Shown here in pieces: positions 6,890-57,792 of a stretch of 64,000 nucleotides of DNA. Location: contig JACRPN010000006.1 in NCBI GenBank assembly GCA_016223145.1, forward strand, positions 120,211-184,210, given 5' to 3'. Position 1 is the first letter of the stretch, and the number at the start of each line of letters is the position of its first letter. Under the pieces are notes generated by a model that worked only from the letters and a program-made list of their open reading frames with translations, ran no database searches and was not told the origin of the DNA. Source of the stretch: Armatimonadota bacterium. Lineage in GTDB: Bacteria; Armatimonadota; Fimbriimonadia; Fimbriimonadales; Fimbriimonadaceae. Position numbers and translations under genes: made by a program.

Positions 6890-9394
6890 TCAACCCTTCC
6901 CCCCATGATCCTTCATTTCGGCGCTCTTGCGGTCGTTCGCGCCCAGCAGGTGCTCGGCGAAATACTCCATGGTCATCTGGCTGAAGTAGGTTTGCATCGG
7001 CCCATACCCGTGCGCCTGACCGGGGAACAGGATGAAGTCGAACCGCTTGTTCGCTTTGATCAACGCGTCCACGAGCCGGTAGGTGTTCGCCGGGTGGACG
7101 TTGTTATCCATGTCGCCCGTCGCGAGGAGGAGTTTGCCCTTCAGGTTCGCTGCGAGCTCGACCGTCGTCGGCACCTTGATCTCAAGCTTGGTCTCGGTCT
7201 CCAGCGGGATGATCTTGCCGTCCTTGTCCTTCTTCGGCACCTTGGTTTCCTTGATGCCGTGGTACTGCTCGCTCCAGTTGTCGTTGTAGATGTTGTTGTC
7301 GTGGTTGCCGGATGAGCTGACACCGACCTTGAAGAAGTCGTTGTAAGGCGGCAAGAGCAGAGCCGCGGCGGTCATGAATCCCCCGCCGGAGTGCCCGTAG
7401 ATCCCGACCCGTTCGATGTCAATCCAGGCGTACTTGCTCGCGAGCTGCTCGATGCCGGCTTTCTTGTCGGCAAGGCCGTAGTCGCGCAGGTTGAAGTAGC
7501 TGTAGCTCTGATAGGCGTTGGATCGCGCGGGGTTGCCGCCCCGATTGCCGATCTGGATCACGATGAACCCAAGCTGTGCGAGCCGCTGGTCGCCGGCGGA
7601 AGCCGAGAACGTGGAGGCAACGCTCTCGGTCTGAGGTCCCGGATAGACGTGGGCGATCACTGGATAGCTCTTGTGCGGGTTGAAGTCAAACGGCTTCCAC
7701 AGGTTGCCGTAGATGTTGGTGACCCCATCAGCCGCCTTGACCACGAAAGTCTCCGGCATTTTCCAGCCCGTCTCATACAACCGGCTCAGGTCGGCCTTCT
7801 CCAGCGGCAGAAGCTCCTTGCCGTTCTCGTCTCGAAGCACGGATTCGGGCGCAAGGTCCACCCGCGAGTAGTTGTCCACGACGAACTTCTTGCTGGGTGC
7901 GAGCACGGAGTTGTGGTCGGCGTTTCCAGGATCGAGAAGCGTAATGCTCTTGCCGTCAGGGCTGACCCGGTACAGATGGCGATAGTAGGGGTTCTCTCCC
8001 TCCTCGCGGCCAACGCCACGAACCCAAGCCGTACCCTTGTCCTCGTCGAGCTCAGCGATTTGGTCGAACCGCGAGGGTCCTTCCGTCATCGCGTTCTTCA
8101 GCTTGCCGTCTTGCCCGTAGAGATAGTAATGCCCCCAGCCCGTCCGTTCAGACCACCAGATGAAATCGCCGTTCTTGAGCCTCCGTGGCGCCTGCACCTC
8201 AAGATTGGCCTGCTCGATCGACTCGGAGAGAAGCACCTTCACCGAGCCCGCCTTCGGGTCGTATTCGCAATAGTCCAGGTTCCGCTGGAGCCGGTCGCGC
8301 CGGCAGAACCGCATGAGGCTGGAGTCTCCATTCCAACTCATGTTCATGAGCCGTTGATCCTGCCACTTGCCCACGTTGGCCGTCTTTAGCTTCTTCTCGG
8401 CTTTATCGAATGTGAAGAGCTCGGTCTGGGTGACGTCGGCCTCGCCGGGCATTGCATAACGATATTGCGAGAGCGTGGGCCGAGGCTGCGCCAGGTTGTT
8501 GACCAAGAACAGCTCCTTGACCTTGCGCGAGTCGCTCCGCGTCACATAGAACATGCTCGAATCTTTCGACCACGTCACGTTGGCTCTCACTCGGCGCTCC
8601 GGCGGCTGGTTGGTCTGCTGGCCGGTTCCGCCTTGCACCAGGTCCTCGATCTGCTGTTGCTGCTGTTGCTGCTGTTGCTGCTGGAACTGCTGAAACTGCT
8701 GGCGATCCTCATAGCTGCCAAAGCTGAAATAGCGCTCGCCGTCCTTGGAGAGCTGGACCGGATTCTTCTCGTCGGCCACTTCGACGAAATAGAGGTTGTG
8801 GTCAAGGGCGTAGACGTAGGCCTTTCGATCCGGGGAGTAGTTCCGGAAGCCATCTGCGGCATTGGCGCCCTGACCACCTCCGCCACCTTGGCCGCCACGA
8901 TTCCCGCCACCGCGACCCCCCCCGCCCGGGGGCCCGCCTGCCGGAGCGGCTCCACCGGCAGGTGCATCGCCTAAGAGCTTGAGTGTCCCTTTGGCAATAT
9001 CGTACTCATACCGCTTGGCGTCGACCGTAAACGTGAAGGTGTCTCCCTTATCCGAAAACGTGAGCGTCGTGATGGCCAAATTGGTGATGTCGTAGGGCTT
9101 CTTTCCAAGCTCCGAAAGCTGAGCCGCCATCTTGTTGGAATCGAAGAGCGGCTGCTTCTTGCGCGCCTTGCAGTCGACGATATAGAACTTGACGCCCTCC
9201 CGATCCTGCCACCGGTACCAGAACTTGTCTTGGTCCTTGAGCCAACCGGGCGTCACCGCGGTGCTGTAGGTGTACTGCCGGATGAACTCGTTCGTGAACT
9301 TGTCGGCGAGCTTCCAGTTGGCGGTCTCTACGGCGGGAGCCAGGGGTTGCGCGGCGAGAGAAACCCCAAATAGGAGAGCGGTTAACGAAGTCAT
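6890..9394 (-). CDS. S9 family serine peptidase (dipeptidyl-peptidase IV / prolyl oligopeptidase-like), secreted, with low-complexity insert
   Basis: Signal peptide MTSLTALLFGVSLAAQPLAPA; DPP-IV-like beta-propeller N-domain; catalytic GHSGGGF (GxSxGG) plus downstream Asp/His; insert GGAAPAGGPPGGGGRGGGNRGGQGGGGGQG and QQFQQFQQQQQQQQQQQ; ATG verified at 9394. Confidence 0.8.
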   Translation of the reverse strand: MTSLTALLFGVSLAAQPLAPAVETANWKLADKFTNEFIRQYTYSTAVTPGWLKDQDKFWYRWQDREGVKFYIVDCKARKKQPLFDSNKMAAQLSELGKKPYDITNLAITTLTFSDKGDTFTFTVDAKRYEYDIAKGTLKLLGDAPAGGAAPAGGPPGGGGRGGGNRGGQGGGGGQGANAADGFRNYSPDRKAYVYALDHNLYFVEVADEKNPVQLSKDGERYFSFGSYEDRQQFQQFQQQQQQQQQQQIEDLVQGGTGQQTNQPPERRVRANVTWSKDSSMFYVTRSDSRKVKELFLVNNLAQPRPTLSQYRYAMPGEADVTQTELFTFDKAEKKLKTANVGKWQDQRLMNMSWNGDSSLMRFCRRDRLQRNLDYCEYDPKAGSVKVLLSESIEQANLEVQAPRRLKNGDFIWWSERTGWGHYYLYGQDGKLKNAMTEGPSRFDQIAELDEDKGTAWVRGVGREEGENPYYRHLYRVSPDGKSITLLDPGNADHNSVLAPSKKFVVDNYSRVDLAPESVLRDENGKELLPLEKADLSRLYETGWKMPETFVVKAADGVTNIYGNLWKPFDFNPHKSYPVIAHVYPGPQTESVASTFSASAGDQRLAQLGFIVIQIGNRGGNPARSNAYQSYSYFNLRDYGLADKKAGIEQLASKYAWIDIERVGIYGHSGGGFMTAAALLLPPYNDFFKVGVSSSGNHDNNIYNDNWSEQYHGIKETKVPKKDKDGKIIPLETETKLEIKVPTTVELAANLKGKLLLATGDMDNNVHPANTYRLVDALIKANKRFDFILFPGQAHGYGPMQTYFSQMTMEYFAEHLLGANDRKSAEMKDHGGKG

Positions 9395-9512
9395 GGGACG
9401 GGTATTCGATTGCCGCGACAACAATTCCTCCGTATGCCACGAGATTGGGCCGGTAAGCAGTATTTTGGTCCGAACTTGATTTAGCCCCGGCAAAGGTCAA
9501 TAATCATCCATC

Positions 9513-9950
9513 GTGGTTTGTCCTCGTTGCGGCCGACAAAATGAGCCCCACAACCTCTTCTGCGGAAGGTGCGGGCTGGAGTTTGCGAAGGTCGAGCAGC
9601 CATCAGATAACGCCTCCGACGCCAGGCCCTGCTCGCGCCATCCGCGCGAAATGACCGTCCTATCCTGCGGAAAGTGCGGCGTGGCGATCTGTTACCGCTG
9701 CGTGGTCATCGGCCCCGCGGGTCCACGCTGCAAGGGTTGCGCCCGGAACAAGCTGCCAATCTCAGCCAGAACGGTGGCCGGAGAAGCCAAGATCGGCTTC
9801 CGCCGGCTATTCCAGGCGGGGCCTTTCGTGATCTACTGGTGGATCGTCATCATCGTGCTGGGCGTGAGCCTGGTGCGAGGGTGCGCCTCGATGACAAGAG
9901 GTAACGATAGCCCGCCTTCACGATATTCTCGCGATCAGGCCGGCGAGTAG
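9513..9950 (+). CDS. zinc-ribbon domain protein with C-terminal TM segment (hypothetical)
   Basis: Two CxxC...CxxC units (CPRCG...CGRCG; CGKCG...CYRC...CKGC) followed by hydrophobic FVIYWWIVIIVLGVSL. Confidence 0.4.
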   Translation: MVCPRCGRQNEPHNLFCGRCGLEFAKVEQPSDNASDARPCSRHPREMTVLSCGKCGVAICYRCVVIGPAGPRCKGCARNKLPISARTVAGEAKIGFRRLFQAGPFVIYWWIVIIVLGVSLVRGCASMTRGNDSPPSRYSRDQAGE

Positions 9951-10087: not shown

Positions 10088-10828
10088 TTACTTTCGGCGG
10101 CGTCGTGCGAGGGCAGCGACGGCGAGGCCGAGGACCGCGATCGTTGCGGGCTCAGGCACGGCCAGGATCTCATAGCGCGAGGTGCCACCGGCGAGGTCCA
10201 TCGCAGAGAGATCGAAGTCCCAAACGGCGTGCATATCACTGACCGCTCCGGCCACAGGAGCCCAGCCATAGTTGGCCGATTGAGTGGCGGAGCCGCCGGC
10301 ACTCACAGAGAACGGCGAGATCATCGACTGGAACAGACTTCCAGGCATTCCGTTGTAGCGGGCAAAAAAGCTGTCGCCGCCACGGGAATCGCCGAATGAG
10401 GCGCCGTCCTGGTCGAAGTCCGTGATCGTCACACCGGCGCTCGTCTGGCCCACCGCGTTCGAGATGGTCGGGAAGCTGAGCAGAGCGGACGAAATCGTGA
10501 AGTGCGTCGTCGTGGCGCCGGCAAACACCGCGTACCCAATGGCAACGACAGGGTCGTTGACGTAGCGGGCATAGCCGCTGCTGAGCGTGGCGATCGTGAC
10601 GCCCTCGGCGTTCTTGATGTCGACCGACTGAGCCAACGACCACGAATTCGTATAGTTGTTGGGATCGAAGCCGGCCTGCTCTCGGGTCACCTCGAAGGTG
10701 CCGGTGCCGAGGCTGTTGGTGGCCGTGACTTTGAAGATCACGTTGCCGAAGTCGGCGCTGGCGGCAGCGGCCAGAGACGCAAAAGCGAGAATAGCGATAT
10801 TGGTACGAAGCAAGCGAGTATTCACCAT
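10088..10828 (-). CDS. PEP-CTERM sorting-domain secreted protein
   Basis: Signal peptide; C-terminus VPEPATIAVLGLAVAALARRRRK (PEP motif + TM + basic tail); strong SD (GGGGAGG) before ATG 10828. Confidence 0.8.
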   Translation of the reverse strand: MVNTRLLRTNIAILAFASLAAAASADFGNVIFKVTATNSLGTGTFEVTREQAGFDPNNYTNSWSLAQSVDIKNAEGVTIATLSSGYARYVNDPVVAIGYAVFAGATTTHFTISSALLSFPTISNAVGQTSAGVTITDFDQDGASFGDSRGGDSFFARYNGMPGSLFQSMISPFSVSAGGSATQSANYGWAPVAGAVSDMHAVWDFDLSAMDLAGGTSRYEILAVPEPATIAVLGLAVAALARRRRK

Positions 10829-11000: not shown

Positions 11001-11741
11001 TCAGCGCCGCCGCCGCAGACAGCCCACGAATCCGAGAGCAAGGGCCGCGAGCATTGACGGCTCCGGAACCGGCAACACCTCGTACCGGGAGGTTCCGCCA
11101 GCAAAGTCGAACGACGACAAGCGGAAGTCCCAATGTGCCGTCATGTCGCTCACCGGTGCTCCGACGTTGACCCAACCGTAGTTGTCGTTGTGCGTCAGCG
11201 AGCCGTTTGCACCAACCCCAAAAGAAGCCAGAGCCGAATGAAACTCAGAGCCAGGCACACCGTTGTAGAGCGCGCGATAAGAATTCGTTCCGGAGGCGCT
11301 GCCAGTGAAGCTGGCCGTATCGCCCAAGACGTCGGTCACCGTGACTCCGGCGCTCGTCTGGCCCGTGGGGTTGGCGATCGTTGCGAACGACATCGTTGCC
11401 GACCAAATCGAGAAGTGCGTCGTCGAGGCGCCTGCTCCCACCGAAAAACCGAGGCTGATCAGAGGGTCGTTGGAATAGTAGATGACCGCGCCCATCAACG
11501 TGGCGATGATCTCTTGAGCGTCGTTCCTGATGTCAACCTGCTCAGGCAGCGACCAGAAGTAGCCCTGTCCCGAGTTGGTCACATATTGGGAATCGTATTG
11601 AGCCTCAAAGGAGCCGGTGCCGGCAGCGTTGGAGGCAATGACCTTGAACATGGGCCCGCCGAAGTCGGCATAGGACAACGCCGTCAAAGCGGACAAGGAC
11701 GCGACGAAAAATAGCGAACGAACCGAGCGCAAATACACCAT
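11001..11741 (-). CDS. PEP-CTERM sorting-domain secreted protein, tandem paralog of 10088..10828
   Basis: C-terminus VPEPSMLAALALGFVGCLRRRR; long collinear similarity with the neighbor (FKVIASNAAGTGSFE / FKVTATNSLGTGTFE, TTHFSI / TTHFTI, TSAGVTVTD / TSAGVTITD); ATG 11741 preceded by a GAGGAAG SD. Confidence 0.8.
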   Translation of the reverse strand: MVYLRSVRSLFFVASLSALTALSYADFGGPMFKVIASNAAGTGSFEAQYDSQYVTNSGQGYFWSLPEQVDIRNDAQEIIATLMGAVIYYSNDPLISLGFSVGAGASTTHFSIWSATMSFATIANPTGQTSAGVTVTDVLGDTASFTGSASGTNSYRALYNGVPGSEFHSALASFGVGANGSLTHNDNYGWVNVGAPVSDMTAHWDFRLSSFDFAGGTSRYEVLPVPEPSMLAALALGFVGCLRRRR

Positions 11742-37661: not shown

Positions 37662-37743
37662 GATTTGCCAAAACTGACAGCCGAGCCCTGGGCACTCAGA
37701 TTCAAACGAAGCCCAATGCGGGGGGATTTGCCAAATCTGACCA
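37662..37743 (+). promoter_or_regulatory. pair of 17-bp direct repeats GATTTGCCAAA(A/T)CTGAC upstream of the decaheme cytochrome operon
   Basis: Copies at about 37662-37679 and 37725-37743 (1 mismatch), about 180-260 bp upstream of ATG 37922, in a lower-GC intergenic region. Confidence 0.35.
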
Positions 37744-37921: not shown

Positions 37922-38899
37922 ATGCGTTCGGGCACACTGGCCACAATTGCAGTCTTAGCGCTCTGGCTATTGGTGGGAGCAGCCAGCCAAGGCAACCAAA
38001 AGCCGGTTCCATTCCCCACACAACTCTTTGCCGAAGCCAAGGACGAGGACTTCGGCGGTGAGGAAGCTTGCGGAGCCTGCCATCCGGATCGGATGGATAG
38101 CTACAAGCGATCGCCCCACAGCGAGTTTGTCCACAACGCCAAGCTTGGTCCGTCGAAGCAGGGCTGCGAAGCGTGCCACGGCCCGCTCAACATCCACCAG
38201 CGCGAGAACGACCCCAAGGTCATCAGCTACGGAAAGCTCAACTTTGCCGACGTCAACGCGGCCTGTCTGCGGTGCCATCAGTCGACGATGCGTCCCGAGC
38301 ACTACGCCAAGACGGAGCATGCGCGGGCCAAGGTTTCCTGTACGTCTTGCCACCAAATCCACGTGGAAGCCCCGGGAACCAATTCTGAGAAGTCCGGCAA
38401 GCTGGGCGCCGCCGGCACGGTTCGAGTGTCAGCTTTTGCCGCCGAGCGCGCCGTCAAGAAGCTCCTGAAGGCGCCGGAAACCGAGCTCTGTGGCCAATGC
38501 CATCGGGCAGAGTCGGCTCAGTTCCGCCAGAACTCCCACCACCCTGTACCCGAAGGAGTGCTCGTTTGCAGCGACTGCCACGAGCCGCATCCTGCGAAGA
38601 GCGCAGCGCGCAAGTCCGCTGCCCTGACCCAGAAGTGCATGGGCTGCCATGCGGAGCAAGCCGGACCCTTCGTGTATACGCATGACCCAGTTCAGGGCCT
38701 GACCGGCGACGCCTGTATGGAGTGCCACAAGCCGCATGGCTCTAACAACCCAAGGATTCTGAAGAGCTTCAGCCGCGGTCTTTGCATGCAGTGCCACACC
38801 GACAAGTCCCAGCACAACCCCGGATCCACTTGCTGGACCGCCGGATGCCATTCGGCCATGCATGGTTCGAACACGGACCGGCTGTTCTTGACCCCGTAA
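37922..38899 (+). CDS. periplasmic deca-heme c-type cytochrome (MtrA/DmsE/PioA-like)
   Basis: Signal peptide; 9 CxxCH (CGACH, CEACH, CLRCH, CTSCH, CGQCH, CSDCH, CMGCH, CMECH, CMQCH) plus a C-terminal CWTAGCH (CX4CH) in 325 aa; heme density and size match the MtrA family; the next gene is an OM beta-barrel. Confidence 0.75.
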   Translation: MRSGTLATIAVLALWLLVGAASQGNQKPVPFPTQLFAEAKDEDFGGEEACGACHPDRMDSYKRSPHSEFVHNAKLGPSKQGCEACHGPLNIHQRENDPKVISYGKLNFADVNAACLRCHQSTMRPEHYAKTEHARAKVSCTSCHQIHVEAPGTNSEKSGKLGAAGTVRVSAFAAERAVKKLLKAPETELCGQCHRAESAQFRQNSHHPVPEGVLVCSDCHEPHPAKSAARKSAALTQKCMGCHAEQAGPFVYTHDPVQGLTGDACMECHKPHGSNNPRILKSFSRGLCMQCHTDKSQHNPGSTCWTAGCHSAMHGSNTDRLFLTP

Positions 38900-38933
38900 C
38901 CCCGACCGATCAAAGAGAGACCACCAGGAGGAA

Positions 38934-40568
38934 ATGAACGTGAAACGCTTGCGAGCTGCCGCCATGAGCCTCGTTCTCGCGGCTGCCTTCACCAGCGCAC
39001 AGGATGCGCAGGATAAGAAAGAGGGTCAGGACGCGGAAGCGACAAAAACCCCGAAGTACTTCGCCACGCTTGGTCTTTACGACTGGGGGTTGAGCGGGAA
39101 TCCGCACAAGCTGCGGCAGTATGCCACGCCCGCCACGGGTTTGGTGCTGAAGGACTTCTACACCCAATTCGGTGTGCCGAGGGGCCAAGCTTGGCTTCAC
39201 GCGGCGGGGCCTGGCCAAGAGGACTACGCCTACGAAGGAAGGATGATCTTTAGCAACGGGAAGCTGTCGCTCGACGCTTATCGGATGAGGAACAAGTTCT
39301 TCGACAACACGCCGACGTTCATCCCGCACAGCCAACGGGACGTGGAAGAAGTCAACGGCAGGCTCGCCGTCACGGACAATATCGCGGTGAGCGGAACCTA
39401 CCGCCGGGAGGAGCGCTCGCAGTCCTTTGAGGCGCCGCGCGACCCGCGCAACGATCGCAACTACCTTTGGAATGCCAACATTGACGCCAACCTGAAGGGC
39501 GGCTCGGCCAGCGTCGGTGTGACGGAGCGCCGCTATTACGACCGGCTCAACGTCTACCCAGACTCCAAAACCAAACAGGTGCGGTTCTCCTTCGACCATA
39601 ACATCGGCCCAAAGCTGAACGTTGACGGCACGATCGCCCAGACCAAGATCGAGCAGGGCACGGCGCCCGAGGCGCAGATCGACAATTGGGGCTTGGGGGG
39701 CCAATTCACCCTCAGCGATGACACCGAGATTGGCTTCCGAACGACGCGAGAGAAGTCCGATATTCCGCAAGCCAACCGGGCCTGGGTGAGGGAGCGGTTC
39801 AGCACGACTGCGAACGTGTATCACAGCATTGGCGAGTGGCAGTTGCAGGCCGGCTATACGCGCCGTGAGCATGAGCGCGTTCGAGGTGACCTCTCTTTTG
39901 TCGATCTATCGAAGTGGGACATCTATGAGGGCAGGCTCACCGGCCACGTCAACGATTGGCTCAAGCTGAACTTGAAGGTCAAGCAGCAATCGCTCCGAAA
40001 GGGTGCGATCATGCTGACCGAGGACACGCGCGCGCTCTATTTCGACGACCGGACGACGATTCAGGCCAAGCTGGACGGAAGCAGGGGCCGCACCACCGGA
40101 TACGGCGTGTACACGCAGACCTACCTCGAAAACGAGCCGCGGGACGTGAAGATTCGGAACCACGCCTACACGTTTGGCGGCACCTATCAGCTCACCGACA
40201 CCATGGACGTGTTCGGGGAATACATGAACGAGAGATCGAACGTGAAGAGCGAAGTAGTCGATCCGTTCGAGCTCAAGCTGTTCTTCCCGCAGAGCACGAC
40301 GTTCTCTTGCGGCCTGAACTGGGCCACCAGCCAGAACACGTTCCTCAGCATTGCCTTTACCGAATTTGCGACAGACAATGACAACCCTTTGAACCTGCAG
40401 GACGGCAACGTCCATGGCAGGACACTCAGCACTACACTACGGCACCGTGCGTCCTCGGGCAACGAGTTCTCCATCACGGTGGCGCCCTGGCGATACAACG
40501 ACAAGATGTTCAGCCAATTGGGCTTCCGGACGACCTTGATCCAACTGAACGCAAGCATCCGCTTCTAG
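38934..40568 (+). CDS. outer-membrane beta-barrel protein (MtrB/PioB/OmbB-like porin partner of the decaheme cytochrome)
   Basis: Signal peptide MNVKRLRAAAMSLVLAAAFTSAQD; 544 aa rich in alternating Y/G/T/N/R beta-strand patterns; C-terminal residue Phe (ASIRF), typical of beta-barrel OMPs; 35 nt after the decaheme gene. Confidence 0.6.
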   Translation: MNVKRLRAAAMSLVLAAAFTSAQDAQDKKEGQDAEATKTPKYFATLGLYDWGLSGNPHKLRQYATPATGLVLKDFYTQFGVPRGQAWLHAAGPGQEDYAYEGRMIFSNGKLSLDAYRMRNKFFDNTPTFIPHSQRDVEEVNGRLAVTDNIAVSGTYRREERSQSFEAPRDPRNDRNYLWNANIDANLKGGSASVGVTERRYYDRLNVYPDSKTKQVRFSFDHNIGPKLNVDGTIAQTKIEQGTAPEAQIDNWGLGGQFTLSDDTEIGFRTTREKSDIPQANRAWVRERFSTTANVYHSIGEWQLQAGYTRREHERVRGDLSFVDLSKWDIYEGRLTGHVNDWLKLNLKVKQQSLRKGAIMLTEDTRALYFDDRTTIQAKLDGSRGRTTGYGVYTQTYLENEPRDVKIRNHAYTFGGTYQLTDTMDVFGEYMNERSNVKSEVVDPFELKLFFPQSTTFSCGLNWATSQNTFLSIAFTEFATDNDNPLNLQDGNVHGRTLSTTLRHRASSGNEFSITVAPWRYNDKMFSQLGFRTTLIQLNASIRF

Positions 40569-40623
40569 TGAGCGTAAACGCATGCGACACGAAACCAAAA
40601 CGGAGCGAACAAAGAGGAAAACC

Positions 40624-42180
40624 ATGAAAGCGAGATGGCTATTAGCGACGGCGGCGTTGGCGCCTTTTGCCGTTGCCGTCCTGGCGCTGCAGAGTTGTGG
40701 CGGCGAAGGTGGGCCCATTGGCGGCGGAGGAGGCGGAGGGACCGGTGACACTGCGCTCGTGGCGCAGTTCAAGGGCCTCTTCACCGATTCTCAAAAGGCA
40801 GGGGCGACTTATGTCGGCTCTGAATCCTGTGGAGCCACCGGTTGCCACGGGACCCGTGACAATGAGGACATCTATTCGACTTGGCACGAAACCAAGCACT
40901 TTGGCAAGAACGTAGGTTGCGAGAGCTGCCACGGTCCTGGCAGCGCGCACGTTGCCAGCCAGAGCGACGCAGATATTTTGACCTTTCCGAAGATCACGAA
41001 TGCTGTGGTTTGCGGCCAATGCCACGGGCCGATCTATAACGACTATCTTCGGTCTGGCCACCGCCAGATCGTTGAGTCGCCTGTGCATGAAGCCGCAACG
41101 AACCCAAATACCTATGGGAAGAGCTCGCGATGCATTTCCTGTCACAGCGGTCTATTCAGGACTGAAATCAACGAAAAGGGCGTCGACGTCGCGACGATGG
41201 ACAACGCCAGGATCACTGAAATTGCGGAAGAGACCCTCAACGACGTGCCCAACATCGCCAACTGCGCGACGTGCCACAACCCGCATGCCCAGACCGGCAA
41301 CGTGAGCAAGGGTGGAAAGGAGGTCCAGTTACGGCATCTCGTCCACAACGAGAGCGTGACGGACATCAACGGCGCTCAGACCACCGTGCCGACGCCGGCA
41401 ACCTTCACGAACTTCAACCACATCTGCGGCCAATGCCACAACGGCCGAGCCGCGGATGGCCGTGACCCCAAGCTGACGAGCAGCACGAGCCGCCCCAACA
41501 TGCACGACTCCAACCAGTTCAACATGCTGATGGGCGTCGGTGGCGCTGAAGGGGCAGGTCCCCCGATTCGCAACATGGCGCATGCACAAGCCCCTGGCCA
41601 ATGCTCCGCCTGCCACATGCCGGGTTCCAGGCACACCTTCACGGTGAGCTACGATAAGGGTTGTGCGCCTTGCCATAGCGCCGAAGACGCGGCAGTTCGA
41701 AAGAGCGCCATCGCCAATGAGATCACTGGCGGACTGTATTCCCTGCGGCAGAGAATGGCGGACTGGTCGGCATCGTTCTACAACGCCAGCAAGCCTGGTT
41801 ACGAGAACGTGCCTGCAGCCCTGCGGCCCTATCTGTGGGAGTACTCCACCATGATCAATGCTGCGGCCACGGAACTTGGTATCACGACGACCAACGTTCC
41901 AACCAACCACCAGTCGGTGTTGCCGATCCAGATCAAGCGAGCGCGACACAACTACTACTTCATCGTCCGAGACTCCTCCATCTGCCCGCACAACCCGCCG
42001 TATGCACGGCACCTGTTGAACGTAGGCAACGACAACATGGATGAACTAACGGGCGGCAGCGCCTACGGAGCCAGCACTTCCAAGAGCAAGTTGCCGAGCT
42101 TCGCGGCGATGCAGCGGGTCCTCCAAGCCGACAAGGCACGAGCAGCCCGTGCGGAAATGAACAACCCGCACGACGACTAA
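40624..42180 (+). CDS. multiheme c-type cytochrome, probable outer-membrane lipoprotein (OmcB/MtrC-role candidate)
   Basis: Signal peptide with Cys (LALQSC), then Gly-rich flexible linker GGEGGPIGGGGGGGTGD; 7 CxxCH (CESCH, CGQCH x2, CISCH, CATCH, CSACH, CAPCH) plus CGATGCH (CX4CH); 14 nt after the barrel gene. Confidence 0.7.
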   Translation: MKARWLLATAALAPFAVAVLALQSCGGEGGPIGGGGGGGTGDTALVAQFKGLFTDSQKAGATYVGSESCGATGCHGTRDNEDIYSTWHETKHFGKNVGCESCHGPGSAHVASQSDADILTFPKITNAVVCGQCHGPIYNDYLRSGHRQIVESPVHEAATNPNTYGKSSRCISCHSGLFRTEINEKGVDVATMDNARITEIAEETLNDVPNIANCATCHNPHAQTGNVSKGGKEVQLRHLVHNESVTDINGAQTTVPTPATFTNFNHICGQCHNGRAADGRDPKLTSSTSRPNMHDSNQFNMLMGVGGAEGAGPPIRNMAHAQAPGQCSACHMPGSRHTFTVSYDKGCAPCHSAEDAAVRKSAIANEITGGLYSLRQRMADWSASFYNASKPGYENVPAALRPYLWEYSTMINAAATELGITTTNVPTNHQSVLPIQIKRARHNYYFIVRDSSICPHNPPYARHLLNVGNDNMDELTGGSAYGASTSKSKLPSFAAMQRVLQADKARAARAEMNNPHDD

Positions 42181-42186
42181 AGCCAG

Positions 42187-42214
42187 AAGCCCGCTCCCTC
42201 AACAGGGGGCGGGC
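42187..42214 (+). terminator. rho-independent terminator candidate after the + strand cytochrome operon
   Basis: AGCCCGCTCCCT-CAAC-AGGGGGCGGGCT hairpin (11/12 bp stem) 7 nt after stop 42180. Confidence 0.5.
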
Positions 42215-42766
42215 TCTCTGAGCCGCCTCTTTGAACATCTGCTCCCGGACCTGAACCGGTATCCTGACTTCCACGAGAGGTCAGGGTGCCGGTTCGCCTT
42301 TTGTGTGATGGTTCAGTAACGCTGGCGAATGGGGTTGGTTTAGGGACTCAACGGCGCGCATCCAGCCCAAAGCCGACGAGGTCGCGGAGTTCTCGGGATG
42401 GGGGTCGGATTTGCCCCTCCAAGGAAAGCAAGAGAACGACAACGAGTGAATGTCTGGCGCAGCTCTAATCGTCTCCATGAGGGAGTGGACGTTGTTGCTT
42501 CGAGGTGGAAGCAGACCTTGCCGGTTGAGACGGCAAAGCAGGAATCTGATTTCTCAACGTCGTCTCTGGCTCGAAGGAGCTGGCCAGCACTTGAAAGCCG
42601 AGGACTGGGCCGCATCTCAAGTGTCGGTCAACGAGGTCCAACGGCCCAACGTGATGGAACGTCGAGCGGGGTCCTGGAACCTGGCGCAAGGGAATGCGCA
42701 AGTCCAGAAGGATTGCCTCGTTGACCTTTGAGATGGCTTCTATCGCTGCAATCGCTGACAAAGGTC

Positions 42767-44026
42767 TCAGTCGTGGGCAGGTTGGCCTTTCTTGCTAAAG
42801 AGGATTTCCACAGCGACTTTGACCATGAGGGTGAAGATCAGGAACCCGATGCCGAACACGCCGATCGCAACACGCACTTCCGAGGCGCTGGGCACGTAGT
42901 GGTAAATCTGCCCCAATGGATCGGGCGTGTAGCCAGGGATGATCAAAGCGATGCCCTTCTCGATATAGACCGACAAGTAGATGAGCACACACCCTACGTT
43001 CATCGTGATCGGGTTCATGCGAGTCTTGGGCACAATGAAGAGAACAAAGGACGAGATCGCAAAGAGTAGAGACATCCAAGCATACGGAGCGATCGGGGAG
43101 CTTTCTCCATGGAGTCCGGTGAAAAGGTACTGGTAGTGTACCAAGTGATGCGTGTTCGAGTAGTACTCCTTGAACACTTCAGCACCAAAGAGGAAAAGGT
43201 TCAAAGCCATGGCGTATGCCATATACTCGGCTACCTTATGGATCGCCTCGTCCTTGATTTCAAAAGACGATATTTTTCTCAATATCTGGAAAAGAATCAG
43301 GAGAAGGGCCGGGCCAGAGCAAAATGCGGAAGCAATGAACCTCGGAGCCAGAATGGCGCTGTTCCAGTAGGGGCGGCTCGCCATGCCGTTGTAAAGGAAC
43401 GCGGTCACCGTATGAATGCCAATGGCCATCGGGATCGACAAGATGACAAGGGGAACCACGATCTTTGGGTTGTATTTCTTGCCATGATAGGCGCAATAGA
43501 CCAAATATGTGGCTACGCAGAAATTGATCAATAGGTAAGCGTTCAGAACCGTGGCATCCCAAGCCATGATCGACTGCGGCAAGTGCATGTGCCCAATGAA
43601 TGGTATGAGATGCCAGAAGCGGTCTGGCCGACCCATGTCAACGCTAACGAAGAGTAGGCACATAATGATCGAGGCGACGGCTAGCAGCTCGCCGAAAATG
43701 ACAACCTCTTTGATTGGTTTCCAGTTGTAGACATAGGCGGGAATAACCAGCAAGACCGCAGCAGCAGCAACGCCGACCAAGAACGTAAAGTTACCAATAT
43801 AGAAACCCCACGAGACGGAGTCGCGCATATTGGTGGTGATGAGTCCGTACTGGAATTGATGGGCATAGGCGAAAACCGCCTGCAAGATGCAGACGCATAG
43901 CAGAGCAAGCCAGAGGTAATAGGTTCTGCTTCCACCCAAAAATGCCATCCGTGCGGTTCCTGAAACGAAGTTCCAGGGAGTTCTTAGGACTTTCATTGAA
44001 TCATGGTTCCTTTTTGAAGCCACCAC
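42767..44026 (-). CDS. NrfD/PsrC-family integral membrane quinol-interacting subunit
   Basis: 419 aa, about 10 TM helices with the conserved NrfD-like pattern (WDATVLNAYLLINF, AILAPRFIASAF); downstream of the NrfC-like Fe-S gene on the same strand. Confidence 0.8.
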   Translation of the reverse strand: MVASKRNHDSMKVLRTPWNFVSGTARMAFLGGSRTYYLWLALLCVCILQAVFAYAHQFQYGLITTNMRDSVSWGFYIGNFTFLVGVAAAAVLLVIPAYVYNWKPIKEVVIFGELLAVASIIMCLLFVSVDMGRPDRFWHLIPFIGHMHLPQSIMAWDATVLNAYLLINFCVATYLVYCAYHGKKYNPKIVVPLVILSIPMAIGIHTVTAFLYNGMASRPYWNSAILAPRFIASAFCSGPALLLILFQILRKISSFEIKDEAIHKVAEYMAYAMALNLFLFGAEVFKEYYSNTHHLVHYQYLFTGLHGESSPIAPYAWMSLLFAISSFVLFIVPKTRMNPITMNVGCVLIYLSVYIEKGIALIIPGYTPDPLGQIYHYVPSASEVRVAIGVFGIGFLIFTLMVKVAVEILFSKKGQPAHD

Positions 44027-44133
44027 TTCGTCTCACGAGAGGCGGTGCACGAGCTGCAAGTGCTTATGCTGAGCCTCCAAAGTGGTGCTCAGCCCGATCG
44101 CAGACGTGTAAAGACGAATTACCTGGAGCATCC

Positions 44134-45093
44134 TTACAAACCGTAGTAGTAGAAGAATTTGGGTTGGGTGTTCAACTCCTCTTTCAGAATCAGAACACGC
44201 TTGTTCTCAATGATGTAGCGGACCTCGCTCTCCGGGTCAAGAAGATTGCCAAACTTGCGGGCACCCACCGGACAGGCTTCCACACACCTTGGATAGAGTC
44301 CCTTTCGAACTCTTCCAATGCACCAAGTGCACTTTTCAACCACGCCACGGGGTCGCGGCCTGTTGCCGAGGTAATCGGTCTCCGTATTTATCTGATCCTT
44401 CGGAATCGTTGGAGTTGTCCAGTTGAAACGTCGCGCACCGTAAGGGCAAGCTGTAATGCAGCATCGGCACCCAATGCACCAGTTGTAGTCGATGACGACG
44501 ATGCCGTCGGGCTCCTTCCACGTTGCACCCACCGGACAGACTTTCACGCAAGGAGGATTCTCACAGTGCTGACAAGCGACCGGCATATAGAACTTGCCTG
44601 GGGCGGGGACTTCCTCGTGGTCGTAAAACGCATCTGCTTTGGCAAGATCAACACCTCCCTCTTTGTCCATTTCCAAGACCGTGATCCAATGCGTCTGTGG
44701 GTCACGAGATTGGTTGTTTTCGTCTACGCATGCGTAGACACACTTCCGGCAACCTATGCACCTGGAAAGGTCGAGCGCATATCCGTACAGCACACCCTCC
44801 AAAGGCGGTGTGGAGGTAACGTTAATGTGCTTGCCGTAATCTTCCCAGTACTGCTTTTCCATCCGGGCGAGTGTCGTCTTCAGTTCTTCCGGCGAAAGGT
44901 CCTTAAAGTACTTCTGAACGAAATCGTCACGTATTCGCTTATCCGCCAGACAGCCCGTCAGGGAAGCCGTTGCAGCCAGCGAAAAAAAGGTCTGGACGAT
45001 TATCTCGCGGCGACTTGGCCCGTTACGATCCATCTTCGGGGGCGGTTTTGAAGCGACTTGAAGTTTGCTCATCGTGTGACCTTCCAGAATCAC
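44134..45093 (-). CDS. Tat-exported 4x[4Fe-4S] ferredoxin-type iron-sulfur subunit (NrfC/PsrB/HybA-like)
   Basis: Twin-arginine leader SRREIIVQTFFSLAATAS; four Cys clusters (CIGCRKCVYAC, CQHCENPPCVKVCP, CIGCRCCITACP, CTWCIGR...CVEACP); start overlaps the stop of the upstream tetraheme gene. Confidence 0.85.
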   Translation of the reverse strand: MILEGHTMSKLQVASKPPPKMDRNGPSRREIIVQTFFSLAATASLTGCLADKRIRDDFVQKYFKDLSPEELKTTLARMEKQYWEDYGKHINVTSTPPLEGVLYGYALDLSRCIGCRKCVYACVDENNQSRDPQTHWITVLEMDKEGGVDLAKADAFYDHEEVPAPGKFYMPVACQHCENPPCVKVCPVGATWKEPDGIVVIDYNWCIGCRCCITACPYGARRFNWTTPTIPKDQINTETDYLGNRPRPRGVVEKCTWCIGRVRKGLYPRCVEACPVGARKFGNLLDPESEVRYIIENKRVLILKEELNTQPKFFYYYGL

Positions 45094-45614
45094 CGGATCT
45101 CCTCTTGTGGCAGTGGAGGGGGCATAGGCTTGAGTGGCTTGAAGCGAGGGGAGTGGGGGTTGTGACAGCTTACGCAGAGCAAGTACTGCTTCTGTCCCGA
45201 CCAGGATCCCGTCCGCTTTCCGTGTTCACCGGCTTTCCAAGCGCGAAGTGTCGGGCCATGGCATTGGCCACAGAGACGATAGGACTCAGTGAACGGAACA
45301 GGGCGGCCGTCAGCAAGGTGAAGCTGGTCGCGATTTTGGGCATCGTGGCAATCGAGACACCACCTGTTCTTTTCATCATGGTGCAGCTCGATGTCAGGAT
45401 GGGCATCCACGGCATGTGGGGTTCGGTTGACGATCGCATCCTTCATATGGCAGTTTGAACACGGAAAGATGCCTTCAGAAAAAGGTGGAGGCGACACAGG
45501 AAGCAGATTTGCAGTTCCGCCATTGGGTCTGGTTGAAGCATTGTTGAAGTGGAGGGATCTCCCGGTTGTCTGGTCGCAACCGCTCAAGAGAATGGAGCCG
45601 ATCCCTACCGCCAT
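45090..45614 (-). CDS. tetraheme c-type cytochrome, probable lipoprotein
   Basis: Lipobox-like ILLSGC after MAVGIG; CSNCH, CLDCH, CGQCH, CVSCH; start uncertain (45614 ATG; the ORF track extends to 45863 with a non-signal-like N-terminus). Confidence 0.65.
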   Translation of the reverse strand: MAVGIGSILLSGCDQTTGRSLHFNNASTRPNGGTANLLPVSPPPFSEGIFPCSNCHMKDAIVNRTPHAVDAHPDIELHHDEKNRWCLDCHDAQNRDQLHLADGRPVPFTESYRLCGQCHGPTLRAWKAGEHGKRTGSWSGQKQYLLCVSCHNPHSPRFKPLKPMPPPLPQEEIR

Positions 45615-45798
45615 CCAGATAGATGGCTTGCCAAAGGTTGCTTTTAGTCTATTTCGCACGTGCGTGCTCCTCAATTCTGAAAGAGAAGAGCTGAATAGCC
45701 GCTCCCCACCTGATGCTCTACTTTGACGGGCTGGATTCAATGATCCTGATTCTCTGAATCCGTCATAGAGAATCCAGCCGAACCCAATGTTGAGCCTG

Positions 45799-46134
45799 CT
45801 ACTTGCTCTTTTCGTCGCCGGGCAACGTGCCCTTCTTGAGTTCGTCGCCGTTCTTGACACCATCTTTGTCCGAGTCGAGCGCCTCGATCTTTTTAAGGAT
45901 GCCAGCCGTCAGCTCCGAGCCTCCCGAGGCCTTAAGAGCCTTGTCAACATCCCTGCCGTAAGCGTTGACAGGGCCGCCCTTATTTGATGGATGACAAGCG
46001 GTGCACATGGCTTTTGAAAGCGCCGAGCCGGCCGGTGCTTTGTAGGCGCCAATGAAGGTCTTGAGAAACATCGGCTTTGGCATGGCGAAGCAGGCGATCG
46101 AGCCGAGGATGACGAGGATTGTTGTTCTTTTCAT
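45799..46134 (-). CDS. small secreted monoheme cytochrome c
   Basis: Signal peptide MKRTTILVILGSIACFA; single CTACH; 112 aa; ATG 46134 overlaps the Rrf2 stop. Confidence 0.7.
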   Translation of the reverse strand: MKRTTILVILGSIACFAMPKPMFLKTFIGAYKAPAGSALSKAMCTACHPSNKGGPVNAYGRDVDKALKASGGSELTAGILKKIEALDSDKDGVKNGDELKKGTLPGDEKSK

Positions 46135-46616
46135 GGTTGTTCTCGATGAGGATGCGAAAGAGAATTCTTGTTGCCTTGATGACCTGCCTCCTTGATCCCT
46201 TCCGAGCCGGCAAGACCTTCTAGCGTGCGGCTTGCGAGGATATGGCAGACCGAGTCCCTCATCCCACTCCAAAGGTGGTGGAGCTGACAAGGAGATTCGG
46301 CGTTGCAGACTCGGTCGTGGTTCAAGAAACACCAAGGCTTCACAAATGGGCCCTCGTATGCTTCGATGATCTCCAGTAGGGTGATTTCAGAGGCGGACCG
46401 GGCCAAGCTGTATCCACGCACGGCGCCTCGATGAGGCCGGAGCAATCCGGAATTGACCAGTTGGCTGAAGATATTGCGGGCGAATTTACACGGGATCGAG
46501 GCGCCGGTTGCGATCTCTTCGGCTTGGATGGGGCGGCCCGGGGGCTGGCCGGCAATCCACATCATTGCCGACAAAGCGTACTCACATCCCCTCGTCAGTC
46601 GAAGAACCTGTGCCAT
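46131..46616 (-). CDS. Rrf2 family transcriptional regulator with probable Fe-S cluster (IscR/NsrR-like)
   Basis: N-terminal wHTH LRLTRGCEYALSAMMWIA...IPCKFARNIFSQLVNSGLL; three clustered Cys C-x7-C-x5-C (PWCFLNHDRVCNAESPC); first gene of the - strand cytochrome/NrfCD operon. Confidence 0.8.
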   Translation of the reverse strand: MAQVLRLTRGCEYALSAMMWIAGQPPGRPIQAEEIATGASIPCKFARNIFSQLVNSGLLRPHRGAVRGYSLARSASEITLLEIIEAYEGPFVKPWCFLNHDRVCNAESPCQLHHLWSGMRDSVCHILASRTLEGLAGSEGIKEAGHQGNKNSLSHPHREQP

Positions 46617-46620
46617 TGGG

Positions 46621-46633
46621 TTGAGTCACTCAA
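46621..46633. promoter_or_regulatory. perfect 13-bp palindrome TTGAGTcACTCAA immediately upstream of the Rrf2 start; candidate operator
   Basis: 6+1+6 inverted repeat, 5 nt upstream of ATG 46616 on the - strand. Confidence 0.3.
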
Positions 46634-47033: not shown

Positions 47034-47109
47034 AAAGGGGGAGTGGTAGCCCGGACGGGACTTGAACCCGCGACCTCCGCCTTGAAAGGGCGGCATCCTA
47101 ACCACTAGA
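47034..47109 (-). tRNA. tRNA-Glu (anticodon UUC)
   Basis: Reverse complement reads GGCCCGGTCGTCTAGTGGTTAGGATGCCGCCCTTTCAAGGCGGAGGTCGCGGGTTCAAGTCCCGTCCGGGCTACCA: cloverleaf with 7-bp acceptor, anticodon loop CTTTCAA (UUC), T-loop TTCAAGT, encoded CCA; close to E. coli tRNA-Glu (CGUCUAG...CGCCCUUUCACGGCGG). Confidence 0.8.
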
Positions 47110-47167
47110 CGACCGGGCCAGAAGCTCTGGATTGTGGCCTATTCAGGGCCTTCTCGGCAAGCGGGGC

Positions 47168-55623: not shown

Positions 55624-57792
55624 GTGGCGTTTTCGGTCCCCGGTCAAGACGGACTGTCGTGGGATGACGCTTTCATTGCCGTGGTCGGCAACCCCAATGC
55701 GGGGAAAACAACCCTCTTCAATGCGCTGACCGGCTCGCATCAAAGGGTCGCCAACTATGCCGGCGTGACGGTCGAACGCGTCTCCGGGAAGCTTCACATC
55801 GGAGGCCGAAACGTCGAGATCATCGATGTACCGGGGCTCTACTCTCTGGAACCCGTCTCCGAGGATGAGCGTGTGGCCGTGGACGTTATCGAGGGCCGCG
55901 CAGAGGGTGGACGCACCCCTTCGCTGCTGGTCTGTGTGATTGACGCCGGCAACCTGGAGCGTAACCTCTACTTCTTCAGCCAGCTCTGCGATCTACGAAT
56001 TCCCGCCGTCGTTGCGCTGACCATGACGGACCTGGTCCGAAGGAACGGCTCAGACATCGACCTGCCGCGCCTGGCGAAGCTGCTCGGAGTGCAGGTAGTG
56101 CCCGTGGTGGCGCACCGCAAGCTCGGCCTCAAAGAGCTTCGGCAAGCGATTATGGACGGGCTTGAGGGGCAGAGGCCTCCGGAGCGGGACCTCGGCCCAA
56201 CCAACGCCTTTGAGATGAAGGTGGCGGCCCTTTCCGAACGCCTCGCTCGGTCGGGCTTCGACGTACCTCGTGAGGAGGTGCGCGCCGCGCTGGAGGGCAA
56301 AGAGAGCGAGTTCGCGCAGAGCCTGAGCGAGGCTCCCGAACTCCTCGAAGCGTTCGAATCGGCCCGTGCGAGCCTGGAGGCGCTCGGTAAGGGCGATGCC
56401 GGCGCCGAGGTCGCGGACCGCTACCACTGGGCCGCTATGGTCCAGCGCGCCTGCGTCCACCAGACTGGAGCCCCAAAGGAGCAAGGTCTGACCGACAAAC
56501 TCGACCTCGTGCTGACCCATAAGTTTCTTGGTTTGGCCCTTTTCGTCGGCGTTATGTATGTGGTGTTCCAGTCCATCTACACCTTCGCCCAGCCGCTGAT
56601 GGAGGGGATCGGGTGGTGTTTCGATCGCCTGGGCGGGATGCTTTCGGCGCGGTTGGAGGGGGTCCCATGGCTTAAGTCGCTGGTGGTGGATGGGATTCTG
56701 ATGGGCGTGGGCACGCTGCTGACCTTTCTGCCCCAAATCTGCATTCTCTTTTTGTTCATATCGATCCTGGAGGGAACGGGCTACCTCTCTCGAGCGGCGT
56801 TCATGATGGACCGGCTGCTCGGCTGGTGCGGGCTCAACGGACGGGCGTTCATCCCCTTGCTTTCGAGCTTTGCATGCGCGGTGCCCGGCATCATGGCGGC
56901 GCGAATTATGCCCGATAAACGGAGCCGTCTGGCGACCATCCTGGTGGCGCCGCTCATGAGCTGCAGCGCGCGGCTTCCGGTGTATCTGGTGCTCATCGGG
57001 GCGTTCATTCAGCCCGCTTATGGGTCCGCCGTCGCGGGAATCGCTCTGTTCGCGATGCACCTACTAGGTCTCTTTGTGGCGGTGCCAGTAGTCTGGGTGC
57101 TCAACCGAGGCCTCATCAAAGGCACGAAGCTGCCGTTCCTATTGGAGCTTCCGCCGTACCAGTGGCCCAAGTGGAGGGATGTCTGGATCGCCGTCTACTT
57201 CCGGGGCAAGGTGTTCGTGCAGACCGCGGGCACGATCATCGTCGTGATGTCGGTGATCATCTGGGCGCTGCTGTACTTCCCGCGCTCCGAAGAGGCGACC
57301 GCGCGATACAGGTCCGAGTTCGCGACCAGGAGGAACCAGACGGAAGTCTCCATGGACGCCTATGTCGAGGGCAGAATGCGCGAGAACTCCTACCTGGGGA
57401 GGTTTGGCAAGGCCATCGAACCCGCGTTTCTTCCTGCCGGATTCGATTGGCGGCTAACCACAGCCATCCTCTCCTCGTTCCCCGCACGCGAAACCATGGT
57501 CTCCGGAATGGGGATTCTCTTTGACGTCGGCGATGCGGCCGAGAACGAGGCGGGGCTGACCGAAGCCCTGAAGCGCGCCTCCTGGCCCGACGGAAGGCCG
57601 TTGGTGACGCCCTGGACGGCGGTTGGGCTCATGGTGTTCTTCGCGCTGTGCTGCCAGTGCATGTCGACGCTTGCGGCCATCCGCCGTGAGACCAACTCCT
57701 GGAAGTGGCCGGTGTTTGTCTTCACCTACATGACCGCCCTCGCGTACCTGGGCGCCGTGCTGGTGCACCAGTTGGAACTACGGTTCGGGTAG
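55624..57792 (+). CDS. feoB: ferrous iron transporter B (G-protein domain + membrane permease)
   Basis: G1 motif GNPNAGKTTLFNALTG, G4 MTDL; two Gate-motif membrane domains; GTG start at 55624. Confidence 0.9.
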   Translation: MAFSVPGQDGLSWDDAFIAVVGNPNAGKTTLFNALTGSHQRVANYAGVTVERVSGKLHIGGRNVEIIDVPGLYSLEPVSEDERVAVDVIEGRAEGGRTPSLLVCVIDAGNLERNLYFFSQLCDLRIPAVVALTMTDLVRRNGSDIDLPRLAKLLGVQVVPVVAHRKLGLKELRQAIMDGLEGQRPPERDLGPTNAFEMKVAALSERLARSGFDVPREEVRAALEGKESEFAQSLSEAPELLEAFESARASLEALGKGDAGAEVADRYHWAAMVQRACVHQTGAPKEQGLTDKLDLVLTHKFLGLALFVGVMYVVFQSIYTFAQPLMEGIGWCFDRLGGMLSARLEGVPWLKSLVVDGILMGVGTLLTFLPQICILFLFISILEGTGYLSRAAFMMDRLLGWCGLNGRAFIPLLSSFACAVPGIMAARIMPDKRSRLATILVAPLMSCSARLPVYLVLIGAFIQPAYGSAVAGIALFAMHLLGLFVAVPVVWVLNRGLIKGTKLPFLLELPPYQWPKWRDVWIAVYFRGKVFVQTAGTIIVVMSVIIWALLYFPRSEEATARYRSEFATRRNQTEVSMDAYVEGRMRENSYLGRFGKAIEPAFLPAGFDWRLTTAILSSFPARETMVSGMGILFDVGDAAENEAGLTEALKRASWPDGRPLVTPWTAVGLMVFFALCCQCMSTLAAIRRETNSWKWPVFVFTYMTALAYLGAVLVHQLELRFG

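Follow-up and report, generated by a model that had tools for sequence, protein, structure and literature searches.

A 64,000-nucleotide stretch of DNA from an Armatimonadota bacterium of the family Fimbriimonadaceae (assembly GCA_016223145.1, contig JACRPN010000006.1, positions 120,211 to 184,210; hereafter the window) carries two separate, convergent operons that probably encode a trans-envelope electron pathway of the Mtr, or porin-cytochrome, type, assembled from parts of mixed ancestry and leading from the quinone pool to the outside of the cell. The plus-strand operon encodes a decahaem cytochrome (A), an outer-membrane barrel (B) and an octahaem lipoprotein (C). The minus-strand operon begins with an Rrf2-family regulator (H) and a monohaem cytochrome (G) and continues with a three-gene cassette, F-E-D, which specifies a tetrahaem cytochrome, an NrfC-type iron-sulfur protein and an NrfD-type membrane subunit (Table 1). 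A scan of open reading frames (ORFs) and haem motifs recovered the nine genes, the haem counts and the convergent layout that an earlier note on this DNA had listed; four start codons were revised. No further ORF in the 64-kb window contains more than one CxxCH motif.

In the pathway that we infer, D would exchange electrons with the quinone pool and pass them to E, a periplasmic protein with four iron-sulfur clusters, which would in turn reduce the lipid-anchored tetrahaem F; together D, E and F resemble the Cbc4 complex of Geobacter. F would hand electrons to A, either directly or by way of G. Threaded through the barrel B of about 26 strands to form a complex, as MtrA is through MtrB, A would then deliver electrons to C, presumed to lie exposed at the cell surface, and C would reduce an acceptor outside the cell, for instance a mineral of Fe(III) or Mn(IV), humic substances or an electrode.

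The A-B-C triad

The first element, A, is 325 amino acids long and has nine CxxCH motifs, one CX4CH motif (CWTAGCH) and a hydrophobic N-terminal signal; 2000 composition-preserving shuffles of its sequence produced at most two CxxCH motifs. Its top match among solved structures is MtrA (6r2q_A), which it covers over nearly its full length (A 6-298 on chain residues 18-287, E 6.6e-33). The score against TIGR03508, the DmsE family, is 182.8 bits and falls narrowly below the cut-off of 192.2, and the best NCBIfam match is NF041028, the GSU2203/OmcK decahaem family (191.8 bits; cut-off 325). Because orthologues of A in a Fervidibacterota metagenome-assembled genome (MAG; locus L009, 206.1 bits) and in a Fimbriimonadaceae MAG (L018, 198.5 bits) do pass the DmsE cut-off, A is placed in the MtrA/DmsE lineage, as the earlier note had suggested, though as one of its divergent members. 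A does not group with NrfB-type chains: the NrfB model reaches only 54 bits, with an E-value of 1e-14 versus 1e-54 to 1e-56 for the DmsE and OmcK families.

B, with 544 amino acids, has a single cysteine and ends in SIRF. Its start was kept at the ATG at 38934, which gives the signal peptide MNVKRLRAAAMSLVLAAAFTSA followed by QD and agrees with the start of the orthologue P0002. The sole Pfam-type match is a marginal one to the generic porin model Porin_4 (30.7 bits), and NCBIfam yields none. A word-index search found five relatives. When 1.84 billion representatives were scanned exhaustively with HMMER, 150 clusters emerged, of which 90 reached E <= 1e-30, and the full-length members nearly all have 500-600 amino acids. 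An AlphaFold2 model of B (predicted local distance difference test score, pLDDT, 73.8) shows a barrel that has no plug and in which DSSP assigns 26 strands, which upholds the earlier prediction of a large outer-membrane barrel. When this model was compared with 350,542 PDB chains by Foldseek, MtrB (6r2q_B) came first (E 5.4e-9), with a template-modelling score (TM-score) of 0.44, the highest among the matches listed. On the strength of the model, B is tentatively assigned to a new MtrB-like porin family, MtrB-like in its predicted fold and not a sequence-level member of MtrB/PioB.

The best-conserved motif among the closest homologues of B, WGLxGNxxKxRQYAxPxxG at residues 51-69, falls in a region of low pLDDT ahead of the confidently modelled strands. 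This segment may lie in the periplasm or in the lumen and touch the decahaem.

The ORF of C (40582-42180) contains seven CxxCH motifs and one CGATGCH. Its start was revised to the ATG at 40624, giving a protein that begins MKARW, reaches a lipobox at LALQSC and continues into a glycine-rich linker; a public gene call of 518 amino acids uses the same start. The lipoprotein signal reads LALQSC-GGEGGPIGGGGGGG, and Cys25 is invariant in 60 homologues, as are all eight haem sites and eight further histidines. The matching invariant extra histidine at every one of the eight haems suggests bis-histidine electron-transfer haems with no open site, and C has no CxxCK motif. In a structure model of high confidence (pLDDT 86.2) the closest folds are those of OcwA and of the S-layer undecahaem cytochrome of Carboxydothermus ferrireducens, both surface cytochromes of Gram-positive bacteria. 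C does not belong to the MtrC/OmcA decahaem family (TIGR03507), for which ten haems, the MtrC/OmcA fold and a match to the model are needed. The lipoprotein multihaem cytochrome described in the earlier note stands, on its lipobox, glycine linker and eight haem sites, and the likeness to MtrC or OmcB does not: by its modelled fold C is OcwA/NrfA-like. Homologues form at least 320 clusters, in which the named members are all Armatimonadetes, Fimbriimonas, Fimbriimonadaceae or Chthonomonas.

The triad recurs in related genomes. A search with a four-sequence alignment of B gave five genome and three metagenome loci. The A-B pair is conserved across Armatimonadota MAGs, and the two genes adjoin in all related loci whose sequence extends far enough. 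C follows them in L001, L003, L005, L007, L009, L011, L012, L018, L019, L020 and L021. The only lineage without C in this place is that of L004, L013 and L014, where a non-haem lipoprotein gene lies ahead of A.

The F-E-D cassette was found beside the triad in three different orientations, which bears out the linkage of the two halves that the earlier note had drawn from one genome. In the window the two units converge; in L003 and L022, which come from the same sample and overlap by exactly 30 nt, the cassette is co-directional and downstream of C; and in L021 it is divergent and immediately adjacent to the triad. Other loci have other candidate feeders. In L018 and L019, some 3-7 kb downstream of C and past a set of cytochrome c maturation (Ccm) genes, there are a multihaem-cytochrome b fusion and a NapC/NirT-type seven-haem protein of about 500 amino acids, architectures that we take to be like those of Geobacter CbcL and ImcH, and a pentahaem gene lies upstream of A in L009, L011 and L012. 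These arrangements are consistent with an outer-membrane conduit that is conserved and whose feeders at the inner membrane can be exchanged.

Several features of these relatives merit description in their own right. The lipoprotein of the lineage without C (L013:7260-8924 and L014:7260-8924) has 554 amino acids, the lipobox LFVRC-GGGGP and no CxxCH, and combines DUF5980, Ig-like and C-terminal 'lipo-invert' anchoring domains; identity of the barrel in that lineage is 28%. This lipoprotein may be a different surface partner. A Fervidibacterota-like clade has 0.7-1.5 kb of extra sequence between the decahaem, barrel and octahaem genes (L012:5800-6627 and 8207-9694; gaps at 1855-3396 in L008 and 9181-9922 in L011), and the extra ORFs of L012, real or spurious, encode 275 and 495 amino acids with 12 cysteines each and no family match. 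In the Fimbriimonadaceae and Chthonomonas MAGs (L018:14290-17762 and L019:16850-20244), CcmF, CcmE and CcmABC are the Ccm genes that follow the triad, and the multihaem-cytochrome b fusion there has 604-631 amino acids and six to seven haem motifs.

Table 1. Genes and DNA signals of the locus, in window coordinates
Feature	Position	Strand	Basis
A: periplasmic decahaem c-type cytochrome, MtrA/DmsE/OmcK homologue, Sec signal peptide	37922..38899	+	motifs, profiles
B: predicted outer-membrane beta-barrel, about 26 strands, plugless, Phe at end	38934..40568	+	model, fold search
C: octahaem lipoprotein, OcwA/NrfA-like fold, presumed cell-surface electron outlet	40624..42180	+	motifs, model
D: NrfD-family integral membrane subunit, about 10 transmembrane helices, presumed quinol/quinone site	42767..44026	-	Pfam NrfD, 138 bits
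E: NrfC-type protein exported by twin-arginine translocation (Tat), 4x[4Fe-4S]	44134..45093	-	four Cys groups, SRREII
F: lipoprotein c-type cytochrome with four haems, start revised	45090..45659	-	4 CxxCH, lipobox
G: small periplasmic monohaem cytochrome, EF-hand-like loop, presumed conduit shuttle or accessory	45799..46134	-	1 CxxCH, orthologues
H: Rrf2-family regulator, first gene of H-G-F-E-D operon	46131..46616	-	Pfam Rrf2, 101.8 bits
Promoter-like TTGACA-17-TAAACT, upstream of H	46687-46659	-	10/12 positions match
Palindrome AGTCAYTCAA-N9-TTGARTGACT	46652-46624	-	directly after promoter-like site
Direct repeat GATTTGCCAAANCTGAC, two copies 63 bp apart, upstream of A	37662-37678, 37725-37741	+	2 matches versus 0.02 expected by chance
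Terminator-like hairpin closing A-B-C operon	42252..42296	+	20-pair stem, then T-rich tail CCTTTTGTGT

The minus-strand operon and its surroundings

The NrfC/NrfD-type module of the earlier note is present: an NrfD-family membrane subunit, a Tat-exported protein with the four cysteine groups of 4x[4Fe-4S] proteins and the twin-arginine motif SRREII, and a multihaem cytochrome are encoded in one operon. The closest family models are Dsr rather than Nrf ones. D scores 418.7 against NCBIfam DsrP, above its cut-off of 350, and E scores 189 against DsrO, below the cut-off of 200; the QrcC, TtrB and NrfC models match E more weakly than DsrO does, and the NrfC and NrfD equivalog models stay far under their cut-offs (112 versus 378 and 29 versus 348). 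The start of F was revised to the GTG at 45659, which follows GAGGAG and gives a protein of 189 amino acids with the lipobox LLSGC at the end of GIGSILLSGC, and that of G to the ATG at 46134, which gives 111 amino acids. The longer starts of the ORFs, at 45863 for F and 46335 for G, were set aside because the chosen ones give proper signal peptides and match orthologues. Between F and its tetrahaem counterparts in the cassettes of L003, L015, L016, L017 and L021, identity is 56-72%. With overlaps of 4 nt between G and the stop codon of H and again between F and E, the genes H-G-F-E-D read as one operon.

Two further neighbourhoods of the cassette may be recorded. On a 2-Mb contig of another lineage (L016:9487-14545), the stand-alone F-E-D is followed by a 500-amino-acid NapC/NirT-type seven-haem protein, a monohaem protein and an eight-haem protein with 30% identity to A over the C-terminal two-thirds of the latter. 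An association of the cassette with multihaem chains may therefore not be confined to Armatimonadota. In L021:12797-16911 it adjoins genes for a Complex1_51K/NADH_4Fe-4S protein and an 886-amino-acid molybdopterin protein; this pair, which resembles a formate dehydrogenase linked to NAD, might supply electrons.

G has orthologues beside A-B-C in several relatives (L007:6805-7140, L018:13888-14217, L019:13898-14221, and L021:7801-8133 and 11289-11618). In the window G is co-operonic with F-E-D, and in L021 one copy lies between the two units; the two copies there flank the cluster. Across the family the CxxCH is invariant and a distal histidine or methionine is not, invariant residues include K25, Y31, K41, Y59 and K100, and a conserved EF-hand-like loop, LDSDKDGxKNxDE, is found near the C-terminus. 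Such ligation and such a loop are unusual for a simple electron shuttle.

At the head of the operon, H has the arrangement Cys96-X7-Cys104-X5-Cys110 followed by His113, as in iron-sulfur-binding Rrf2 members, and the IscR, NsrR, RirA and CymR equivalog models all score below their cut-offs on it. The palindrome that follows the promoter-like site occurs once in the window, with 0 occurrences expected by chance. It is probably an autoregulatory Rrf2 operator, and H is likely to act as a repressor of the operon that it heads, H-G-F-E-D, under the control of a signal sensed by an iron-sulfur cluster. Co-regulation of both operons by H was considered and rejected, as the palindrome is found only ahead of H and not ahead of A. 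The iron-sulfur-type regulator of the earlier note is borne out at the operon head by its Pfam match and its cysteines and histidine. Neither this gene nor its operator was seen in another genome, and a search for H that covered L001-L014 and L021 turned up no homologue. Upstream of A, the direct repeat GATTTGCCAAANCTGAC is a possible regulator site. L001 and L003 both retain its second copy, and the first is retained in part, in L003 only. The same region of L001 and L003 likewise has GTAAAGATTAAC and a strong GGAGGAAACGATG ribosome-binding site.

The two operons differ in guanine-plus-cytosine (GC) content, which is 0.51 for D, 0.53 for E, 0.55 for F, 0.56 for G and 0.57 for H, versus 0.59-0.62 for A-B-C and 0.61 for the flanks. 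Horizontal acquisition of H-G-F-E-D may account for the lower values. We do not rely on the drop as a sign of recent transfer, since L021 lacks it and D, as a membrane protein, is hydrophobic. The H-G-F-E-D proteins are also far better conserved across phyla than A-B-C. A tRNA-Glu gene (UUC; 47044-47119, minus strand) lies between the promoter of the Rrf2 operon and a gene that we take to be greA. Genes for tRNAs are common integration points, and the position of this one may bear on the adjoining operon of lower GC content.

Elsewhere in the window, a cytochrome b/b6-type gene (4131-5369, plus strand) is directly followed by a gene for a 465-amino-acid protein (5380-6777, plus strand) with one CxxCH and a match to subunit I of cytochrome bd oxidase over the N-terminal half of that subunit; this is an unusual respiratory gene pair. 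A FeoB ferrous-iron transporter (55624-57792, plus strand) is encoded 9 kb from the locus; its proximity is probably coincidental but would be relevant if the conduit produces Fe(II). A PEP-CTERM protein is encoded at 10088-10828, in keeping with the earlier description of the host as a PEP-CTERM-bearing organism.

Competing readings of the locus

Several observations weigh against the pathway as we propose it. Two concern the barrel itself. The MtrB/PioB likeness claimed in the earlier note holds for the modelled fold and fails for sequence: B has no match to MtrB_PioB (PF11854), none of 75 relatives matches it even at E <= 1, and neither the 4-sequence nor the 75-sequence profile of the B family retrieves MtrB (6r2q_B) from the PDB. 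In addition, the model on which the fold comparison depends was built on an alignment of four sequences.

Other observations concern the link between the two operons. A-B-C could be a real conduit and F-E-D and the Rrf2 gene mere neighbours that serve other chains, with the conduit fed from elsewhere. We regard this as unlikely, though as the most serious of the alternatives. D is 68-86% identical to its best 120 homologues listed, of which the named ones come from Gemmatimonadota and Verrucomicrobiota. The cassette also occurs by itself, surrounded by unrelated genes and away from any porin-cytochrome genes, in L015, L016 and L017 (from Verrucomicrobiota, Gemmatimonadota and one other lineage). 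Because of this identity and this stand-alone occurrence in other phyla, F-E-D has to be seen as a generic, strongly conserved module, and the idea that it is the conduit's own dedicated part is withdrawn. Conversely, the cassette is missing within 10 kb of A-B-C in L009, L011, L018, L019 and L020. The convergent layout, the operator ahead of H with no copy ahead of A, and the lower GC content of H to D point the same way. What speaks for a partnership nonetheless is that three independent arrangements (convergent, co-directional and divergent) keep the cassette directly beside the triad, and that G, which is linked to the triad elsewhere, shares an operon with F-E-D here and lies between both units in L021.

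The same hardware might also run inward, as a conduit for the oxidation of Fe(II) or minerals of the MtoAB or PioAB kind; we judge this unlikely as well, a shade more so. C and A would then take electrons from extracellular Fe(II), G would act like MtoD in carrying them towards a terminal oxidase, and F-E-D would drive some of them uphill to quinone. Cultured Armatimonadota are known as aerobes, and the window also encodes the cytochrome b and the bd-type oxidase-like protein. A survey tree places an Armatimonadota decahaem annotated as MtoA nearer to PioA and MtoA, of Fe(II) oxidizers, than to Shewanella MtrA/DmsE (PMC9671151), and the conserved small monohaem beside the triad parallels the MtoD of mto clusters (PMC8805035). 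The locus itself, however, has no Cyc2, HiPIP or cupredoxin gene. Further, a large lipoprotein multihaem is retained in the triad, with its closest folds among the surface cytochromes of metal-reducing Gram-positive bacteria, and the genes that we take to be CbcL-like and ImcH-like lie a few kb downstream in relatives. In Geobacter, CbcL and ImcH act in outward transfer (bioRxiv 10.1101/2025.04.14.648717). The resemblance of C to surface cytochromes of Gram-positive metal reducers and the presence of these genes near the triad in relatives are the reasons why we modestly prefer outward flow.

It is improbable that C is instead an NrfA-like or octahaem-reductase-like enzyme that acts on a soluble substrate such as nitrite, hydroxylamine or sulfite and receives its electrons from A-B outside the periplasm, as DmsAB does from DmsEF. 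OcwA reportedly reduces nitrite and hydroxylamine in vitro, but C lacks CxxCK, each of its eight haem sites has its matching invariant histidine in the 60 homologues, and its best fold matches are two surface cytochromes and not enzymes. Least credible of all, and in our view very nearly dismissible, is a DsrMKJOP-type sulfur-respiration complex: D exceeds the DsrP cut-off, E falls just under that of DsrO and a Gemmatimonadota homologue is automatically named DsrP at NCBI, but DsrM, DsrK, the trihaem DsrJ, DsrAB and DsrC are absent from the locus and from the window's large ORFs, F carries four haems and matches no DsrJ model, and in Gemmatimonadota and Verrucomicrobiota the cassette is common and has no Dsr genes close by. 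Nor is the locus a known nitrite- or sulfur-respiration operon, as no Nrf, Psr or Dsr catalytic gene was found among its ORFs or the large ORFs of the window.

Relation to known systems and implications

The outward porin-cytochrome pathway that we favour has clear counterparts. With the MtrCAB, MtoAB and PioAB systems of Shewanella, Sideroxydans and Rhodopseudomonas (6R2Q) it shares a homologous decahaem of about 325 amino acids with a barrel gene next to it, and with MtrCAB-type systems a lipoprotein multihaem in the same operon that starts Cys-Gly-Gly. B, however, is about 100 residues shorter than MtrB (544 versus 649 in 6r2q_B), has a single cysteine and gives no MtrB_PioB signal, and C differs from MtrC and OmcA in its eight haems and OcwA/NrfA-like fold; the gene order here is A-B-C. 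In Geobacter sulfurreducens, the consecutively numbered GSU2203 (OmcK) and GSU2204 offer a second comparison, since the former represents the best NCBIfam family of A and the family of the latter is weakly matched by 8 of the 75 relatives of B. A selenoproteome review places the GSU2204 family among MtrB/PioB-type barrels (PMC13188914), and iron oxides induce both genes (PMC4070692). The scores are, however, far under the cut-offs (191.8 versus 325 for A and at most 27 versus 350 for the barrels), the window's own B does not match the GSU2204 model, and B is without the CXXCH or selenocysteine motif found in members of that family. OcwA of Thermincola potens (nine haems) and the C. ferrireducens undecahaem (11) reside on Gram-positive walls or S-layers, whereas C is an octahaem lipoprotein partnered by a porin and an MtrA homologue.

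The inner-membrane cassette is likewise of a known design. Geobacter Cbc4 consists of the tetrahaem CbcS, the 4x[4Fe-4S] protein CbcT and the membrane subunit CbcU (bioRxiv 10.1101/2025.04.14.648717). In Aeromonas the NrfBCD-like NetBCD feeds MtrCAB, and its genes sit in mtrCAB clusters (cited in PMC8805035). Both combine a multihaem cytochrome, an NrfC-type 4x[4Fe-4S] protein and an NrfD-type subunit, and resemble F-E-D in architecture; for both, a link from quinol to periplasmic or Mtr cytochromes has been either proposed or shown (bioRxiv 10.1101/2025.04.14.648717 and PMC8805035). They differ in that CbcS is anchored by a transmembrane segment and F is a lipoprotein, that NetB is a pentahaem, and that D scores best against DsrP and not NrfD. 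The resemblance to DsrJOP of DsrMKJOP and to the Hmc/Nhc/Ohc and Qrc complexes lies in the DsrP-like D with about 10 helices, the DsrO/QrcC-like E and the adjacent cytochrome c partner; here, however, the cytochrome has four haems, and DsrMK, DsrJ and sulfur-metabolism genes are missing nearby. The claim that the combination was undescribed is thus overstated, because NetBCD feeds MtrCAB and Cbc4 shares the architecture of the cassette. Most likely this is a known kind of system, in which the new elements are the porin family and a phylum not known for such conduits.

The only trace of such a system in the literature searched is the MtoA-annotated gene, which comes from a hot-spring Armatimonadota MAG (PMC9671151); searches on Armatimonadota or Fimbriimonadaceae together with extracellular electron transfer, ImcH or porin-cytochromes returned nothing relevant beyond that annotation. 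A census of MtrCAB with hidden Markov models that needed an MtrB match found it in three phyla, with no Armatimonadota among them (PMC8805035). As the B family escapes searches that require MtrB, the Armatimonadota system is invisible to standard iron-cycling annotation.

We put forward, as a tentative generalization that could well prove too broad, that Armatimonadota widely carry a distinct conduit, made of an MtrA-type decahaem, a compact barrel of a new family with about 26 strands, an OcwA-type octahaem cap, a conserved monohaem with unusual ligation and a Ca-binding-like loop, and swappable feeders of the Cbc4-like, CbcL/ImcH-like or pentahaem kind. To our knowledge, an OcwA-type cap has previously been seen only on Gram-positive cell walls, and Armatimonadota are known from aerobic heterotrophs. 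If functional, the conduit would make extracellular electron transfer a common and overlooked trait of Armatimonadota, and an OcwA-type terminal reductase would be shared by monoderm and diderm envelopes. The organisms able to exchange electrons with minerals or electrodes would then include a phylum that is common in soils, hot springs, sludge and freshwater, and B would offer a compact alternative to MtrB for engineering. If this is true, MtrA-type wires can pair with OcwA-type outlets and with several quinol modules, a finding that would bear on the evolution of such pathways through the swapping of modules.

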